Below, in pieces: positions 35,277-57,775 of a stretch of 64,000 nucleotides of DNA. Location of the stretch: the sequence record PQ433349.1. One strand, given 5' to 3'. This DNA comes from Escherichia phage vB_Ec-G1. The translations under genes and the position numbers were made by a program. Within the stretch, counting starts at the first letter, position 1, and the number at the start of each line of letters is the position of its first letter. The notes below the pieces were generated by a model. The model worked only from the letters and a program-made list of their open reading frames with translations. It was not told where the DNA came from and searched no databases.

Positions 35277-36251
35277 TTAAACAGCAGCTTCTTCTTTTTC
35301 AGGGAAGATAAAGCTTGCAATAACACCAAGAGCTAATGTGCCTAGAACAATCATCAGACTTACGTTAGGGGAAATATCATGCGGGAGGAATGACCACTTG
35401 GCATGAAGTGTTTCACCGAACGGGTGATACATAAGTTTAGCACCGACAAATACCAGAACCACAGCAACAGCTTTCTCTAAGTGAACCAGATATTTCACAG
35501 CCACACTTAACACAAAGAAAAGTGCACGTAAACCAAGAACAGCCATCAGCATTGCAGAATAAACTAGCAGAGGTTCTTGTGTCACACCGATCACAGCCGG
35601 AACTGAATCAAAAGAGAAGACAATATCTGTAAGCTCAATAACAAACACACAAAGAAGAGCAGGAGTTGCATATTTAATACCATTCTTAATGGTGATGAAC
35701 TTTTCACCATCCAGTGCATTGTGCACAGGCAGAACTTTACCTACTAAACGAACAGCCCAATGCTTAGAGTAATCAATATCCTCTTCTTCGTCACCACCTT
35801 TGATGATAGCCACGGCAGACCAAGCTACAATCAAACCGAACAACACTTGGACCGACCAATGAAGGTTAAACAAAGCGGTCCCTGCTGCAACAAAAATACC
35901 TCGGAAGACAATGGCTCCTGCAATCCCCCAAAGTAAAATCTTATGTTGGAGATGTGTGCTCTTAATTCCAAAGCTTGCAAAAATTGCCATGAACACCATC
36001 AGGTTATCTACAGAAAGACTCTTTTCCAACACATAGCCACTTAGGAAAAGCGCGGCAAACTCTTTACCATGTTCTACCCAAATGAATGCGTAATATCCTA
36101 AAGCTAAAGCAATCCAAAAAACAGACCAAAGCAAAGCAGATTTAATTCCAATTTCTTTATTCTCTTTATGACCAAAGAAATCAATACCAATAGACAATGC
36201 TAAAATACCAACTAAAACAACTACATCAATAATGGGGAAACCAAGTTGCAT
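35277..36251 (-). CDS. terC: TerC-family integral membrane protein
   Basis: Multiple TM helices; signature EKSLSVDN and ELTDIVFSFDSVPAV. Confidence 0.85.
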   Translation of the reverse strand: MQLGFPIIDVVVLVGILALSIGIDFFGHKENKEIGIKSALLWSVFWIALALGYYAFIWVEHGKEFAALFLSGYVLEKSLSVDNLMVFMAIFASFGIKSTHLQHKILLWGIAGAIVFRGIFVAAGTALFNLHWSVQVLFGLIVAWSAVAIIKGGDEEEDIDYSKHWAVRLVGKVLPVHNALDGEKFITIKNGIKYATPALLCVFVIELTDIVFSFDSVPAVIGVTQEPLLVYSAMLMAVLGLRALFFVLSVAVKYLVHLEKAVAVVLVFVGAKLMYHPFGETLHAKWSFLPHDISPNVSLMIVLGTLALGVIASFIFPEKEEAAV

Positions 36252-36567: not shown

Positions 36568-37044
36568 TTAAAGTTTATAAATAGTCACATCGTGACCTGT
36601 TTTTACTAAAGTTTCTTCAATCATCACTTCAATGATAGCCCAATTACCTCCTGCCAACCCTGCTCCAATCATAGGTAAGCCGATCTTACATTTTTGGTCA
36701 CGGAGAAGCAAATCATTAGCCATAGCTATTAGTGCATCGTACAAGGCATCATAGTCCAACTGACGACCTTTAGCATTGTATCCGTAACGGTATTGCCCGT
36801 ACAGATTATATACCAAAGGGTCTGATTGTTCGTCTGGCACCCCTAAACTAAAACAACCCAGTTTACTTTGATCACCAGCCATTGTGTCTAAGTCTGCTGC
36901 ATATGCGTAAGGAAATGCTCGTTTGATTTGTGGGGCAATACCTGCCCCCATATTACACATACAGTTGCAACAATGAGCAATAACAGTTACTTCACCTGCT
37001 TTAGCGGCATCAATAAGATTACCTGTTTTCATTTTAAGCATTTT
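36568..37044 (-). CDS. macro-domain protein (ADP-ribose binding/hydrolase)
   Basis: VIAHCCNCMCNMGAGIA and IGLPMIGAGLAGG resemble macro-domain motifs; start at internal Met of track ORF. Confidence 0.55.
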   Translation of the reverse strand, partial: KMLKMKTGNLIDAAKAGEVTVIAHCCNCMCNMGAGIAPQIKRAFPYAYAADLDTMAGDQSKLGCFSLGVPDEQSDPLVYNLYGQYRYGYNAKGRQLDYDALYDALIAMANDLLLRDQKCKIGLPMIGAGLAGGNWAIIEVMIEETLVKTGHDVTIYKL

Positions 37045-37054
37045 TAGCCCCTTA

Positions 37055-37882
37055 TTACAGAATGTGCTGTTTTGTGTAACGATCCAAGAATTCAAAGTTT
37101 TCAGCATACTTTGAAATTCGGTTGTAACCTTCTCCCAAGCATCCAAAGAAAAGTTGCTCTACATAGTAGTGTGGCAATTGACTAAGAATGATTTTGAAGT
37201 CTTCATGATTTTGGCCCATAAGATATTTAATAGGACGAACAAGACACTGTGCATCACGTTCTTCATTAATCATTTTAACAAACGCTTCTGGTGTATTAAT
37301 GTAGTTAAAATTCAGTTTAGCTTCGGTATCTGCTTGATTACCTTCATATTTTGCAAAATACAGGAAGTAAACATCATTTTTAACTTGATTTTCATCAAGA
37401 ATCTCAATCAGTTTGTCTTCATGCGTTCCAGTGATATTTACATCATCAATGAATACAAGCTTCTTATCACCCCAGAATTCTTTGTTGCAGTAGAATGTAT
37501 CCCCATCAATAAGTTTCTTACGACTAGCTTTATCCAAGAAACCATAATCGTTGATATAGCTAACTTTACGATGAATAATGTCCAGTTCTGCTGAACGACC
37601 TTGATCATATTGTGATTGCAACATGTTAAAGTAATTAATAAAATGATCTGTCATCATTGTTGCAGCATTATGCACATGGTTGTAAGGAGAAGGAATGATA
37701 ACAAATTGTTCCCCAATATGTTTCATTGCCACTTGAGCAAAAAACTGAAGTGCCAATTCTTTACCCATACGACGCGCGGCTTGGTTACTACCAAATTTCA
37801 ATTTTGAATAATCTTGGATATCAAAAGTAGCAGTTTCCAGGTCATCAAATTTATTTGCAAAAATTTGAGTTTGATTACGCAT
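37055..37882 (-). CDS. phosphoribosyltransferase (PRTase) domain protein
   Basis: PRPP-binding motif KKLVFIDDVNITGTHEDK. Confidence 0.65.
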   Translation of the reverse strand: MRNQTQIFANKFDDLETATFDIQDYSKLKFGSNQAARRMGKELALQFFAQVAMKHIGEQFVIIPSPYNHVHNAATMMTDHFINYFNMLQSQYDQGRSAELDIIHRKVSYINDYGFLDKASRKKLIDGDTFYCNKEFWGDKKLVFIDDVNITGTHEDKLIEILDENQVKNDVYFLYFAKYEGNQADTEAKLNFNYINTPEAFVKMINEERDAQCLVRPIKYLMGQNHEDFKIILSQLPHYYVEQLFFGCLGEGYNRISKYAENFEFLDRYTKQHIL

Positions 37883-38531
37883 TTACAATTTCTCCTCTTT
37901 TAAGTTTCTCTAGTAAGTCGTTAGGGTTCTTAATATGACAGAAGTTAAATCCTAAGTCAACACATTTTCCATCATATTCTTCACTATCGCCTACGTGCAA
38001 TACTTCGTGCCCTAACAGAGGGATCGGAGAATACGTGAGCGTGCGAGCAAAGAATCGCGGATCTGGTTTACAAAGTAAAGCTTCATCCGAGAAATGGGTG
38101 AACTCAAAACAATTCCAACTATCAAACTTACAAGCACGACGCAGGATATCCCCTGATATAAAGTTGGTATTGCTCTTAATACTCAAATCATAACGTCCCG
38201 AAAGATACAGCAAGTACATCGGCAGATCCACGGCTACGTGTGGTGGAAACTTAAGGAACCACTGTTCACACTCGAAACGAAGCTTTGCAGACTTCCAAGG
38301 TGTTATCCCAAGTTCAGAACCAAGTCTTTCCCAGGCGTATGCTGCACACTCGGCTTTGCCTTGAAGTGCTGCATTATCCAGTTCCTTTTTGATCTTCTTA
38401 TAAGCTGCTCTTGCTTCCACTTCCGTAATATCTCCATATTTTGCGATAGTCCAGGCTCGCATGTCTGCGTAATTGGAGTTTGCTGTGATCAGTGTGTTCC
38501 ATACATCAAAAGAGATATGTTTAATAGTCAT
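37875..38531 (-). CDS. HAD-superfamily hydrolase
   Basis: Motif I FDVWNTL, KPDPRFF, motif IV HVGDSEEYD. Confidence 0.6.
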   Translation of the reverse strand: MTIKHISFDVWNTLITANSNYADMRAWTIAKYGDITEVEARAAYKKIKKELDNAALQGKAECAAYAWERLGSELGITPWKSAKLRFECEQWFLKFPPHVAVDLPMYLLYLSGRYDLSIKSNTNFISGDILRRACKFDSWNCFEFTHFSDEALLCKPDPRFFARTLTYSPIPLLGHEVLHVGDSEEYDGKCVDLGFNFCHIKNPNDLLEKLKRGEIVNA

Positions 38532-54156: not shown

Positions 54157-54172
54157 TAAGGCTCCCTTATTA

Positions 54173-54197
54173 AACCCGCTTCGGCGGGTTTTGTTAT
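54173..54197 (+). terminator. intrinsic terminator
   Basis: aacccgcttcggcgggtt hairpin followed by ttgtt. Confidence 0.7.
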
Positions 54198-54224: not shown

Positions 54225-55226
54225 TTGTTAGATATGCCAGTAAAGAAGAGTATTGAAACATATATGGAAGAATGTAAGCCGATAGCTGAGGCTAAAGGGA
54301 TTACCATTCTCGGCACGTATGGAGAAGATAAAGGTGTGCATACGAAGATGATCAATCGTTGTGAACATGGTCATGAATGGAACACTACAACCTTTAATAA
54401 ATTTAAGTCTGGTCGTGGTTGCCCTGTTTGTAGGTATGAGAGAGCAGGACAAGCTAAAACTATTCCAGATGATCAGCACATACAAGATTTTATGAATACA
54501 GGCAAGTTTAAACCTGGGACTATCTTCACTAATACAGGAAAACGAGCTAAAGGAGGGCGCAATATTTTATGGTGTGTAGAGTGTCCTGTTTGTAGTGTTG
54601 ATGAATATGTTCAAGCGGGTGTCTGCAATGGTAAATTTTACTCTACAGGGAGTAGCCTTAAAAAAGGGCAAACCCCTTGCCGTTGTGCAACTAACTATCA
54701 CCACACAGAAGAACAGATCACCTACAGAACAAAGAAGGAAGTAGAGAGTAAAGGATACATTTGGATAGGATGGATCGGGAAACCTTTTGCACATGGTAAG
54801 TTTAAATATGGATGTAAGGAGCACGGAGAGCAGATAGGACGTGCAAGGGATTTATTACACCAGGGTAGTGGTTGTCCTGGTTGCGCTGGCAAGAATCAAC
54901 AACAGGCATACATTAACAACGTCTATGATGAACAAGGTGTTCTTTGTGCATTGAAGTTTGGCATTGCCAATAATAGCGATCAGCGTATTAAGATCCAGAA
55001 CTACAACAATGTGTTTACGATGAAACAAACCCAAGTGTGGCGCTTCCCTACTGTGAAGCAATGCAAAGATGCAGAGAAGCGTTGTAAGCGTGTCCTTCAC
55101 ACGGAAGCAGTGAGCAAATATTCTATGCCAGATGGCTACACAGAGACAGTGGAGTTATCTTGCATGGCATCAATACAAAATATTTATAAACTTTATGGTG
55201 GAACATTACAGGAGGAAACATGTTAG
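54225..55226 (+). CDS. zinc-ribbon-repeat protein with GIY-YIG/T5orf172-like C-terminal domain (tentative)
   Basis: Three repeats of C.HG..W ... G.GCP.C; C-terminal YINNVYDEQGVLCALKFGIANNSDQRIK; sits right after a terminator. Confidence 0.45.
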   Translation: MLDMPVKKSIETYMEECKPIAEAKGITILGTYGEDKGVHTKMINRCEHGHEWNTTTFNKFKSGRGCPVCRYERAGQAKTIPDDQHIQDFMNTGKFKPGTIFTNTGKRAKGGRNILWCVECPVCSVDEYVQAGVCNGKFYSTGSSLKKGQTPCRCATNYHHTEEQITYRTKKEVESKGYIWIGWIGKPFAHGKFKYGCKEHGEQIGRARDLLHQGSGCPGCAGKNQQQAYINNVYDEQGVLCALKFGIANNSDQRIKIQNYNNVFTMKQTQVWRFPTVKQCKDAEKRCKRVLHTEAVSKYSMPDGYTETVELSCMASIQNIYKLYGGTLQEETC

Positions 55227-55585
55227 TTGACGTTCAAATTATGCGCAACGAAAGAATGGACTTCTTTGAAGCAGTAGAGAAACATCTGATCCGATGGGAC
55301 TATGAATTTGTTCCTGCTGGATGTGGACCAGTAGAGCATTTAGCGGAAGACGACGATGTATACATGATCATTCGTCAAGTGTACCAGACAGACCAGTGTG
55401 AAGAAACTCCCGAACTGATTTTGTTTGAGTGTAAAGATCTTGCAAAATATTTTGACTATGGCGGAAAAGAGGGTCATAATCTCTCCAGATACAATAAACG
55501 TCTACTTATCTTAGACTACATGCGGAACAACAAACACAAACTCATCGACGCAGACGCAGTTTATGGCTACTGGTGGATGGACTAA
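55220..55585 (+). CDS. hypothetical protein
   Basis: Track ORF 121 aa. Confidence 0.45.
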   Translation: MLVDVQIMRNERMDFFEAVEKHLIRWDYEFVPAGCGPVEHLAEDDDVYMIIRQVYQTDQCEETPELILFECKDLAKYFDYGGKEGHNLSRYNKRLLILDYMRNNKHKLIDADAVYGYWWMD

Positions 55586-55598
55586 CAAAGGAGAAACT

Positions 55599-55778
55599 AT
55601 GGCACGTTTAGCAGATCATGAAATCTTTAAACCTATTCTGAACCACTATGATGAACTTAAAGCAGTGTTGGATTGTTATAGAGAGGATGAAGAACGTTTG
55701 GAAGTCAATCTTAAGATAGTTCTGATGAAAGCTTTTCAAGACGGGCAAGCTAAAGTTTTAGAAGGCATGAAAAAATGA
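55599..55778 (+). CDS. hypothetical small protein
   Basis: GGAG RBS before internal ATG of track ORF 55563..55778. Confidence 0.4.
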   Translation: MARLADHEIFKPILNHYDELKAVLDCYREDEERLEVNLKIVLMKAFQDGQAKVLEGMKK

Positions 55779-56317
55779 GAATAACTGATGAATATGTATT
55801 CTTCTTTTCACATAAAGATGTGTTTAGTAATTGGTATATTGCACCCTTTACAGAAACTGAACCAGGTTACAATGAGACTTTCTGTTGTGTTGAGCAATAT
55901 ATGATGTGGCGTAAGGCTTTGCTGTTCAAGGATCATGCGATTGCAGCAGCTATCCTTGATCACTCAACTATACGTGACAACGAGAGGAAACAAGCATACT
56001 ACAAACGTATGGGTCGAGCGGTATCTGGTTTTAATAATGATATGTGGGAAGAGAACCGTGAGCGTATTGTTATGCGAGGCTTATGCTTGAAATATGTACA
56101 GAATCCAGATTTGTATGCAGACTTACACCTTTACCAATACAAAACGTTTGTTGAAGCAAGCCCCTACGATAAGGTTTACGGAATTGGAATGGGGATGTAT
56201 GAACCAGGGGTGCTAAACCCTGCTACCTGGAAAGGGCAGAATCTTTTAGGCAAATATCATAATAAACTGATCGAAATACTTTTCCCAGACAAAATACCGC
56301 AAAGACGATATTTGTGA
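55775..56317 (+). CDS. NADAR-domain protein (YbiA-like ADP-ribose processing)
   Basis: FSNWY, CVEQYMMWRKALLF, RMGRAVSGFNNDMWEENRERIVMRGLCLKYVQNPDL, ASPYDKVYGIGMG align with E. coli YbiA as recalled. Confidence 0.75.
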   Translation: MRITDEYVFFFSHKDVFSNWYIAPFTETEPGYNETFCCVEQYMMWRKALLFKDHAIAAAILDHSTIRDNERKQAYYKRMGRAVSGFNNDMWEENRERIVMRGLCLKYVQNPDLYADLHLYQYKTFVEASPYDKVYGIGMGMYEPGVLNPATWKGQNLLGKYHNKLIEILFPDKIPQRRYL

Positions 56318-56372: not shown

Positions 56373-56408
56373 AGGCTCCTACAGCACCGTAGAGAGCCTG
56401 TTATTTTG
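56373..56408 (+). terminator. intrinsic terminator
   Basis: ggctcctac agcacc gtagagagcc hairpin followed by tgttattttg. Confidence 0.6.
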
Positions 56409-56561
56409 TCCTATACAAACCCTTATCTTTTTCAGTTTGCATCACTAGGATTCGATCTAAGTGGGTTCCTGAAGGTCTGCCAATAAGATTAAAGGTTATC
56501 TCAAATTCCCACTACCTATTATCTCAAAAATCCCTCAAATTATTTAAACTTTTTAAGAATT

Positions 56562-56740
56562 TACAAAAGTGAAAGTTGAAAACCAAAATTTAAAGTTTAG
56601 GAAAATTATCTTAAAATGTTAGATACAAAACAAAACTCAAAAATCAAGGAAAATTTTAAAAATTTTGCGCGCCCACAGTATTTAAAGTTTTTTTGCTTTT
56701 ACAAAAATGAAAGTACAAAAGCAAAATTTAAAGTTTACAA
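56562..56740. repeat. two about 38-bp direct repeats in an AT-rich non-coding region
   Basis: acaaaagtgaaagttgaaaaccaaaatttaaagtttag (56562-56600) vs acaaaaatgaaagtacaaaagcaaaatttaaagtttac (56701-56740), about 33/38 identical. Confidence 0.6.
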
Positions 56741-56789
56741 AAATTTATGCAGATGGGAATGAGAAGAGTTCTCATATGGAAATGCAAAT

Positions 56790-56860
56790 GATAATGATTC
56801 GCATTTAGGTTTATAAATGAGATTGATTCTTATTCAATAAGGTAAATGATAATCATTCTC
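56790..56860. promoter_or_regulatory. pair of Fur-box-like sites
   Basis: gataatgattcgcatt and aatgataatcattctc versus E. coli Fur consensus GATAATGATAATCATTATC. Confidence 0.45.
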
Positions 56861-57097
56861 ATTTAAAGAATGACGCGCAGGGGCGGTGTTTGTCTCGCGC
56901 TCCCGTGTCCCCTCGCCATGTAATAAGAATAACAGATCCAGCCAGGAAAGCAAGCGATTATTTTATCTTTACATTTCTTTACAAATATATAGCGCCCAGC
57001 CTACCGGCGATCAACCTTCCAACCAGTGCCCCCTGGTATGTTAGCCCCGCCTTTACGCCGTGGGGTGGCGCTTCCTCTTCTGTATGTAAAACAGTAT

Positions 57098-57135
57098 AAG
57101 CCCGATCCCTGGGCTTGTCAAGATTATTTTTTGTT
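57098..57135. terminator. stem-loop with T-run
   Basis: aagcccgatccctgggctt hairpin then ttattttttgtttt on plus strand; also just past stop of minus gene. Confidence 0.4.
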
Positions 57136-57390
57136 TTCTTGCCAGGATAGGACACCTAACCAAAAATATATATCGCCCCGCGCCCCTGGTGGTATCTTGC
57201 TTTCCCCGCCGCCACTGCAAGCCCATAGATAACCATTTGCGAACGTATCAAAATGATCTATCTCTTCCACCTTATGATCGCCCAGGTTGAGAACGGTTTC
57301 AACCTTTAAGCCCGTTGCGCTTGCTACCTGGTGCACCGTGCCGCCTTGCCAGCCCAATGAGTGCATAAGGTGTAATGTAGTATTTGTCAT
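57124..57390 (-). CDS. hypothetical protein in GC-rich island
   Basis: Track ORF 88 aa; codon usage unlike rest of window. Confidence 0.45.
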   Translation of the reverse strand: MTNTTLHLMHSLGWQGGTVHQVASATGLKVETVLNLGDHKVEEIDHFDTFANGYLWACSGGGESKIPPGARGDIYFWLGVLSWQENKK

Positions 57391-57499
57391 GGTATCGCCC
57401 TTTCTTTGATGTGCGCCCTGGTTGGCGCGGTAGAAAGATGATAGCCCTTTCTTTTATATATAGCAAGCAAAAAGAAAATAAAAAAGATTGAAAAAGTGA

Positions 57500-57577: not shown

Positions 57578-57775
57578 ATGGCAACATTGCACATTGTGGC
57601 GAAAGCTGGACAAATAAACGTGGTAGTAAACGGTTTTACTGAGTTCAGTCATCCCCAGGATGATCATGAAACGGTTTTATCTTTCATTGATTCACTGTTA
57701 GAAATGGGAGTAATTACAGAAGACCAGCACGCTACAAAATGCAAGCGCGTTAATCAAATTGCAGGGATAGAATAA
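57578..57775 (+). CDS. small protein (65 aa)
   Basis: ATG after cassette A and GGAG RBS; internal Met of track ORF. Confidence 0.5.
   Translation: MATLHIVAKAGQINVVVNGFTEFSHPQDDHETVLSFIDSLLEMGVITEDQHATKCKRVNQIAGIE

Follow-up and report, generated by a model that had tools for sequence, protein, structure and literature searches.

NADAR-domain proteins act as the antitoxins of DarTG1 systems, in which they hydrolyze guanine-N2-ADP-ribose (Schuller et al. 2023, PMC11543638), and all members of the family tested have guanine-ADP-ribose glycohydrolase activity (PMC12945103). In phage T4, the NADAR protein gp30.3 (AdfN) has been described as an anti-DarTG1 counter-defence factor (Johannesman, Carlson and LeRoux, bioRxiv 2024; Nat Commun 2025, PMC11825919). 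Two further and unrelated phage NADARs, AdfN-Bas32 and AdfN-Bas60, neutralize DarT1 in E. coli without infection and let RB69, T5, and Bas25 plate again on hosts with DarTG1. They have no effect on DarTG2; specifically, T5 on DarTG2 is not rescued by AdfN-Bas60 (PMC11825919). Bas60-62 are phi92-like phages, now assigned to Justusliebigvirus, the sister genus of Phapecoctavirus in the subfamily Stephanstirmvirinae. The gene considered here lies at positions 55775-56317 (plus strand) of a 64,000-nucleotide stretch, hereafter the window, of Escherichia phage vB_Ec-G1 (PQ433349.1), a phAPEC8-like coliphage of the genus Phapecoctavirus. By analogy with AdfN-Bas60, of which it is the Phapecoctavirus orthologue, the gene is predicted, with a probability of roughly 0.75, to encode a NADAR ADP-ribosylglycohydrolase that removes DarT1-made guanine-ADP-ribose from phage DNA. 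The idea of an anti-DarT1 function in this phage clade is itself already published (2024-2025).

The open reading frame (ORF) starts with ATG, encodes 180 amino acids, and is clearly a single-domain NADAR protein. Coordinates, strand, and length agree with those of an initial annotation of this DNA, and the four peptide strings quoted there all occur in the translation. The NADAR assignment, for which that annotation proposed a profile search, is borne out: Pfam NADAR (PF08719, DUF1768) matches residues 11-161 at model positions 3-154 of 163 with 122.1 bits (E 3.4e-35), well over the gathering cutoff of 35.1. The protein also matches NCBIfam TIGR02464 (114.9 bits, cutoff 73.7) and phrog_1017 (E 3.8e-51), and the domain begins at about residue 8. 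An AlphaFold2 model, computed from a 55-sequence alignment whose homologues span 38-90% identity, has a mean predicted local distance difference test (pLDDT) score of 95.2 and a predicted template modeling (pTM) score of 0.88. It adopts the alpha+beta NADAR fold, with Foldseek returning from the PDB the structures 8BAU (TM 0.78, E 1.5e-9) and E. coli YbiA (2B3W, TM 0.66) and no other significant match. Phage vB_EcoM-Ro121c4YLVW encodes an identical protein, YP_009985070 (100%). Pairwise ratios of nonsynonymous to synonymous substitution (dN/dS) among Phapecoctavirus alleles are about 0.15, and the gene is thus under purifying selection.

Comparison with bas60_0111 (AdfN-Bas60, QXV83846.1) of phage PaulScherrer (Bas60, MZ501100) gives 57% identity over 172 residues (E 9e-68). 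Both proteins are single-domain NADARs of about 180 residues with the same catalytic residues, including a glutamate at the third catalytic position, and both loci share the order AAA ATPase, CapR-domain endonuclease, NADAR, and conserved non-coding gap. They differ in a loop between residues 27 and 35, which is 7 residues longer in AdfN-Bas60, and in two extra small genes that, unlike in Bas60, separate the endonuclease from the NADAR gene in Phapecoctavirus. Identity, genomic position, phage subfamily, and membership in phrog_1017 all place the protein with the Bas60-type AdfN. Because this level of identity is accompanied by conserved synteny within the same subfamily, the window gene is, on sequence grounds, the Phapecoctavirus orthologue of the experimentally validated anti-DarT1 enzyme AdfN-Bas60. 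The gene is found in all Phapecoctavirus and Justusliebigvirus genomes sampled (70 and 56 records, respectively).

The catalytic residues of the family were defined on the ADP-ribose complex of the Phytophthora nicotianae (Pn) NADAR, 8BAU (Schuller et al. 2023, PMC11543638). Residues of the window protein were mapped through a phmmer alignment to 8BAU and read against the roles given in that paper; the numbering of the deposited chain equals that of the paper plus 2, as checked at six positions. E40 (codon 55892-55894, plus strand, as are all codons given here) aligns with the catalytic glutamate, which is E43 in Pn, E88 in DarG1 of E. coli C7, and E36 in T4 AdfN, while K47 (55913-55915) aligns with the essential phosphate-binding lysine (K50 in Pn, K95 in C7, K43 in T4 AdfN). 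The KRMGR segment K77-R81 (56003-56017) carries the equivalents of Pn K75/C7 K115 (K77) and of the pyrophosphate-binding Pn R79 (R81), and the EASPYD segment E127-D132 (56153-56170) those of Pn E125, the third catalytic acidic residue (E127), and Pn D130 (D132). Further pairs are Pn Y84 with F86, D86 with N88, W89 with W91, R93 with R95, and W133 with Y135. The lysine equivalent to K77, K115 of C7 DarG1, is dispensable in vitro and essential against DarT1 in cells (PMC11543638).

Every catalytic or ADP-ribose-binding residue mapped is kept in the window protein (E40, K47, K77, R81, F86, W91, R95, E127, and D132). Across the 55 homologues, E40, K47, K77, G80, W91, E127, and D132 are invariant, and R81 is conserved in at least 90% of the alignment. 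The catalytic signature of the NADAR superfamily, a glutamate and a lysine on the first long helix together with an acidic residue or histidine at the Pn E125 position, is thus present as E40, K47, and E127. The third of these is a glutamate and neither the histidine of the T4 type nor the aspartate of DarG1.

In the mechanism that these residues point to, the enzyme would bind ADP-ribose attached to guanine N2 in single-stranded DNA of the phage and also of the host. The diphosphate would be held by K47, R81, W91, and R95, with F86 stacking on the adenine, while E40 and E127, one on either side of the distal ribose, would cleave the N-glycosidic bond. Removal of the replication-blocking adducts made by DarT1 of DarTG1 systems would then allow the phage to replicate. 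Phages of this clade (Vequintavirinae and relatives) have been characterized as exceptionally sensitive to restriction-modification systems, which suggests that their DNA is unmodified. Since AdfN-Bas60 works in uninfected E. coli, its orthologue, in contrast to T4 AdfN, probably needs no other phage factor to act on ordinary DNA. Expression is probably early, given the many small plus-strand genes and sigma70-like promoters packed into this region.

The counter-defence role against DarT-type guanine ADP-ribosylation, put forward in the initial annotation, gains support from this comparison, since such a role, with specificity for guanine, has been shown experimentally for the sister-genus orthologue AdfN-Bas60 and the catalytic residues are kept. 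Neutralization of DarT1, as by AdfN-Bas60, would accordingly be expected by analogy as the main natural role of the window protein. Several observations count against so direct a transfer. The two proteins differ at 43% of positions, and the AdfN-Bas60 assays relied on ectopic expression with no deletion in the native phage (PMC11825919). YbiA and T4 gp30.3 are active in vitro and do not rescue DarT1 toxicity in cells, and in-cell specificity is not readable from the conserved residues alone. Conserved chemistry therefore does not guarantee in-cell protection, which keeps our confidence from being higher. The protein also passes the cutoff of TIGR02464, a model named for a riboflavin intermediates N-glycosidase. 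Finally, DarT1 may not be the sole or main natural target, as generic NADARs also remove cytidine-ADP-ribose and act on RNA.

Within the superfamily, the protein is placed nearest to the generic NADARs. The P. nicotianae protein 8BAU, a member of this generic family, is the best solved-structure match both by sequence (single-sequence E 1.2e-12) and by fold, and the residues that contact ADP-ribose are conserved between the two. They differ in that identity is only about 26% and 8BAU is eukaryotic. A profile of the window protein's family scores 124 bits (E 4.7e-35) on 8BAU and 63 bits on YbiA, and the DarG1-type structure 8BAT does not match it at E ≤ 1. The label “YbiA-like” used in the initial annotation is therefore imprecise, the profile being closer to the generic NADAR than to YbiA. 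E. coli YbiA shares with the window protein the NADAR fold and the third-position glutamate; it differs in belonging to a LexA-controlled host operon and in giving no protection against DarT1 in cells. Of the traits of a YbiA-type protein, the window gene has the above-cutoff TIGR02464 match and lacks both a closer similarity to YbiA and a riboflavin or SOS-operon context. TIGR02464, an “equivalog_domain” model, evidently captures generic NADARs as well.

T4 AdfN, of the “phage NADAR” family of de Souza and Aravind, belongs to the same superfamily, has the same proposed job, and likewise carries a glutamate and a lysine seven residues apart. However, in an hhalign alignment to gp30.3 a histidine stands opposite E127. 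T4 AdfN acts only in the context of T-even infection or modified DNA; in uninfected cells it leaves DarT1 toxicity unrelieved, while the Bas60 type relieves it. Membership in the T4 type was rejected on the basis of a BLASTP E value of 4.1, an hhalign probability of 12%, and the absence of a histidine at position 127; tblastn with the window protein did not recover T4-like phages. DarG1 (E. coli C7; G. lovleyi 8BAT) has in common with the window protein the NADAR fold, the glutamate, the lysine, and the K115-equivalent lysine (K77), and its activity, guanine-ADP-ribose hydrolysis, is the chemistry predicted here. The window protein nevertheless lacks the N-terminal extension of DarG1, with its catalytic glutamate at position 40 rather than 88 as in C7. 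Membership in the DarG1 family was rejected because, besides the missing extension, there is no neighboring DarT, the third catalytic residue is glutamate and not aspartate (D171 in C7), and neither 8BAT nor any PADLOC DarG model is matched.

Among the PADLOC models, the protein matches only PDC-M42C (119.5 bits), which is the NADAR part of the candidate defence system PDC-M42. A phage-borne ATPase-nuclease-NADAR defence module (PDC-M42) was considered and rejected, since none of 6 neighboring proteins matches any PDC-M42 model. The nearest bacterial relatives are NADARs that stand alone; in the contexts checked, neither a transferase nor a partner toxin lies beside them, and those in Burkholderia sit among phage-like genes. 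Such orphan homologues, with no ADP-ribosyltransferase (ART) partner and some of them in prophage-like surroundings, fit an “orphan antitoxin-like” reading.

Two allele types of the NADAR gene exist in Phapecoctavirus. Codons 1-33 and 91-180 are nearly identical between them, while in codons 34-90 (55874-56044) the alleles differ at 16 amino-acid positions and synonymous sites are saturated (26.8/33). This central patch takes in both the catalytic helix and the loop that binds ADP-ribose, and no contact residue is lost in it. Positive selection on the patch was considered and rejected, because saturated synonymous sites inside it and near-identical flanks on either side are the mark of a recombination mosaic.

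Four other accounts of the protein were weighed against DarT1 neutralization. One that overlaps with it, and that we regard as a tentative possibility, is that the protein erases nucleic-acid ADP-ribosylation broadly, on guanine and cytidine and on DNA and RNA, with ART toxins or defences beyond DarT1 among its natural targets and DarT1 neutralization as one facet of its role. Generic NADAR and YbiA members tested removed ADP-ribose from both guanine and cytidine in single-stranded DNA and RNA; DarG1 and T4-type enzymes, by contrast, removed it from guanine only (PMC12945103). The window protein has the third-position glutamate of the generic NADAR and YbiA families, and its family profile, as given above, is nearest to the generic NADAR, with no DarG1-type match. 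On the other hand, no cytidine- or RNA-directed ART defence is known against these phages, and the AdfN-Bas60 assays covered DarT1 and DarT2 only (PMC11825919). A more speculative extension, which we consider doubtful, would make the Stephanstirmvirinae NADAR a general eraser of base-linked ADP-ribose that, together with a macrodomain protein encoded elsewhere in the genome, protects these phages across the board from several ADP-ribosylating defences or toxins, among them some not so far described in E. coli; the codon 34-90 patch, which spans the substrate-binding half of the gene, would then represent specificity variants exchanged between phages that circulate together.

A role on small molecules appears improbable. 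In the proposal of Iyer, Burroughs and Aravind, most phage NADARs would degrade small ADP-ribose-derived immune signals or toxins (such as cyclic ADP-ribose isomers) from TIR-, sirtuin-, or ART-based defences; it rests on genome-wide context statistics, in which large myoviruses are enriched for NADAR and the domain is found together with Macro, SLOG, and Nudix (PMC9503650). The window likewise has a Macro-domain gene beside a ComF-like phosphoribosyltransferase (PRTase; 36568-37882). All NADARs assayed to date, however, act on base-linked ADP-ribose, and the demonstrated phenotype of the orthologue AdfN-Bas60 is DarT1 neutralization. The TIGR02464 score, and the names “GTP cyclohydrolase II” or “YbiA-like N-glycosidase” given to the orthologue in several GenBank records, would agree with a housekeeping YbiA-like N-glycosidase that destroys reactive intermediates of the riboflavin pathway. 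That account is very unlikely given how much nearer the profile lies to 8BAU than to YbiA, the placement of AdfN-Bas60 among the non-YbiA NADARs by Johannesman et al. (PMC11825919), and the lack of riboflavin genes near the NADAR gene in the window and in the curated Bas60 annotation examined (most of the genome). Least credible of all is a writer/eraser pair in which the NADAR reverses or tunes ADP-ribosylation by a transferase of the phage itself. Some large phages do carry ARTs (T4 Alt lies near gene 30.3), and Bas60 encodes a sirtuin-family protein; however, no ART domain was found in the genes flanking the window NADAR, none is annotated in the examined parts (most) of the curated Bas60 genome, and NADARs cleave base N-glycosidic adducts rather than the protein adducts of Alt- or Mod-type enzymes.

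The 4 kb around the NADAR gene are 96.6% identical to Phapecoctavirus 536P1 and 90% to phAPEC8. Upstream of it lie, in order, the AAA-type ATPase gene, the gene for the CapR-domain endonuclease, and a pair of small genes of unassigned function. The first small gene (55220-55585, plus strand; 121 residues, phrog_24465) belongs to the same transcription unit as the NADAR gene and is followed by the second (55599-55778, plus strand; 59 residues, phrog_22330); both are missing from Justusliebigvirus. The TGA stop of the 59-residue gene overlaps the ATG of the NADAR gene (ATGA), an arrangement that suggests translational coupling, and a Shine-Dalgarno-like AGAAGG read from the sequence (55760-55765, plus strand) lies 9 nt before that ATG.

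The transcription unit ends with an intrinsic terminator at 56373-56408 (plus strand), made up of a 10-bp bulged hairpin (56373-56399) followed by GUUAUUUUG. The terminator folds at -20.8 kcal/mol (z = -4.59), a stability equaled by 0 of 200 shuffles, and phAPEC8 has an ARNold-annotated terminator at the homologous site; a simple terminator scanner passed over it because of the bulge. The initial annotation had placed a terminator after the NADAR gene, which these results confirm, and had called the gene the last of a plus-strand operon. It is indeed the last before the terminator, but plus-strand genes resume at 57578, past a 1.26 kb ORF-poor gap. The endonuclease gene (54225-55226, plus strand; phrog_681) has a TTG start and encodes 333 residues here, whereas its homologues in phAPEC8, Ro121c4YLVW, and Bas60 have 394-467. 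As its length varies in this way among relatives, it may be mobile, in the manner of homing endonuclease genes. The ATPase and endonuclease genes are separated by a terminator-like hairpin (54172-54191).

Elsewhere in the window, a Macro-domain protein, a ComF-like PRTase, and a HAD-like hydrolase are encoded in a row on the minus strand (36568-38531), as counterparts of bas60_0070-0072. The Macro match (PF01661) is 23.5 bits, just over the cutoff of 22, and the ComF-like PRTase scores 142 bits; a gene for a TerC-family membrane protein (35277-36251) adjoins the cluster. With the NADAR gene, the genome thus encodes two different ADP-ribose-processing folds, and by analogy with T4 Tk.4 the macrodomain could be an AdfM-like anti-DarTG2 factor.

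Among GenBank and RefSeq records of the NADAR orthologue (e.g., NC_047776.2, OR352953.1, MT496970.1), several carry the name “GTP cyclohydrolase II” and most “hypothetical protein”. The former label most likely derives from RibA-NADAR fusions, as sources name relatives “ribA/ribD-fused uncharacterized protein”. Both labels are outdated given the NADAR/AdfN literature, and in about 125 phAPEC8-like and phi92-like genomes the gene could reasonably take the name AdfN-type NADAR ADP-ribosylglycohydrolase, as a predicted anti-DarTG1 factor. Such phages are therapy candidates against avian pathogenic, Shiga toxin-producing, and uropathogenic E. coli, and a probable DarTG1 counter helps to predict their host range. 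The value of the assignment lies in better annotation, and conceptually it adds nothing beyond the 2023-2025 papers.

The 1.26 kb gap past the terminator is more conserved than the NADAR gene itself, at 95-97% identity within the genus and about 82% against Justusliebigvirus, with a core of about 600 nt (56868-57467) at 92-100%. It contains no tRNA or tmRNA genes and no Rfam family at the gathering score or at E ≤ 1, and a literature search returned no origin or small RNA (sRNA) described for it and no origin known for this phage group. Single-sequence folding did not consistently reproduce a hairpin whose loop is the conserved AGACAAACAC, and this hairpin was set aside.

Within the gap, a non-coding element on the minus strand (56850-57125, core 56966-57090) contains no ORF and is conserved across genera of large enterobacterial myoviruses. 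It occurs in Phapecoctavirus, Justusliebigvirus, and 15 IMG/VR contigs, and at 72-84% nucleotide identity, mostly unannotated, in Seunavirus, Mydovirus, Certrevirus, Vequintavirus-like, and other large enterobacterial myoviruses; it was not found in E. coli genomes. Its sigma70 promoter on the minus strand (-35 TTGACA, 57121-57116; -10 TATAnT, 57098-57093) is kept in all lineages, and the promoter spacer is a covarying GC-rich hairpin. The element further includes a core of about 90 nt that hardly varies, two copies of a TGTAAAG motif, and a distal helix with many G·U pairs, which are valid on the minus strand only. Its far end carries a palindrome that reads TGAATGATAATCATTCTCA in most genera and is near the E. 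coli Fur box; in this window that palindrome is the final member of a row of four tandem 29-nt units. RNAalifold on 26 copies favors the minus strand (-67.1 versus -62.1 kcal/mol; 11 versus 4 compensatory pairs). The element is a candidate for a new phage sRNA (about 200-240 nt), a regulatory hub, or a DNA-level element, and no link to the NADAR gene is evident beyond adjacency.

Four tandem imperfect palindromes with 29-nt spacing (AAATGAnAAnnATTCnCATTT) occupy 56758-56865. The last copy (56842-56860) has 3 mismatches to the E. coli Fur-box consensus (chance expectation 0.02), and other genera have one homologous copy, TTGAATGATAATCATTCTCA, which comes even closer to the Fur box. Iron-responsive control or iterons are possible functions of the array. 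The stretch from 56400 to 56750 is very AT-rich (25-30% GC). It includes two copies of a direct repeat of 72 nt (56536-56607 and 56674-56745, 82% identical), both with a promoter-like site TTTACA-N18-CAAAAT. With the neighboring repeats, this stretch resembles an origin-like or regulatory region.

An 88-residue ORF (57124-57390, minus strand; phrog_19316, no Pfam match) also lies in the gap. It is unannotated in Ro121c4YLVW, and at least one Phapecoctavirus relative is divergent or gapped in 57168-57217. Between the two genera its nucleotide identity is 93-98%, and substitutions are distributed 5:0:9 by codon position, a coding-like pattern.

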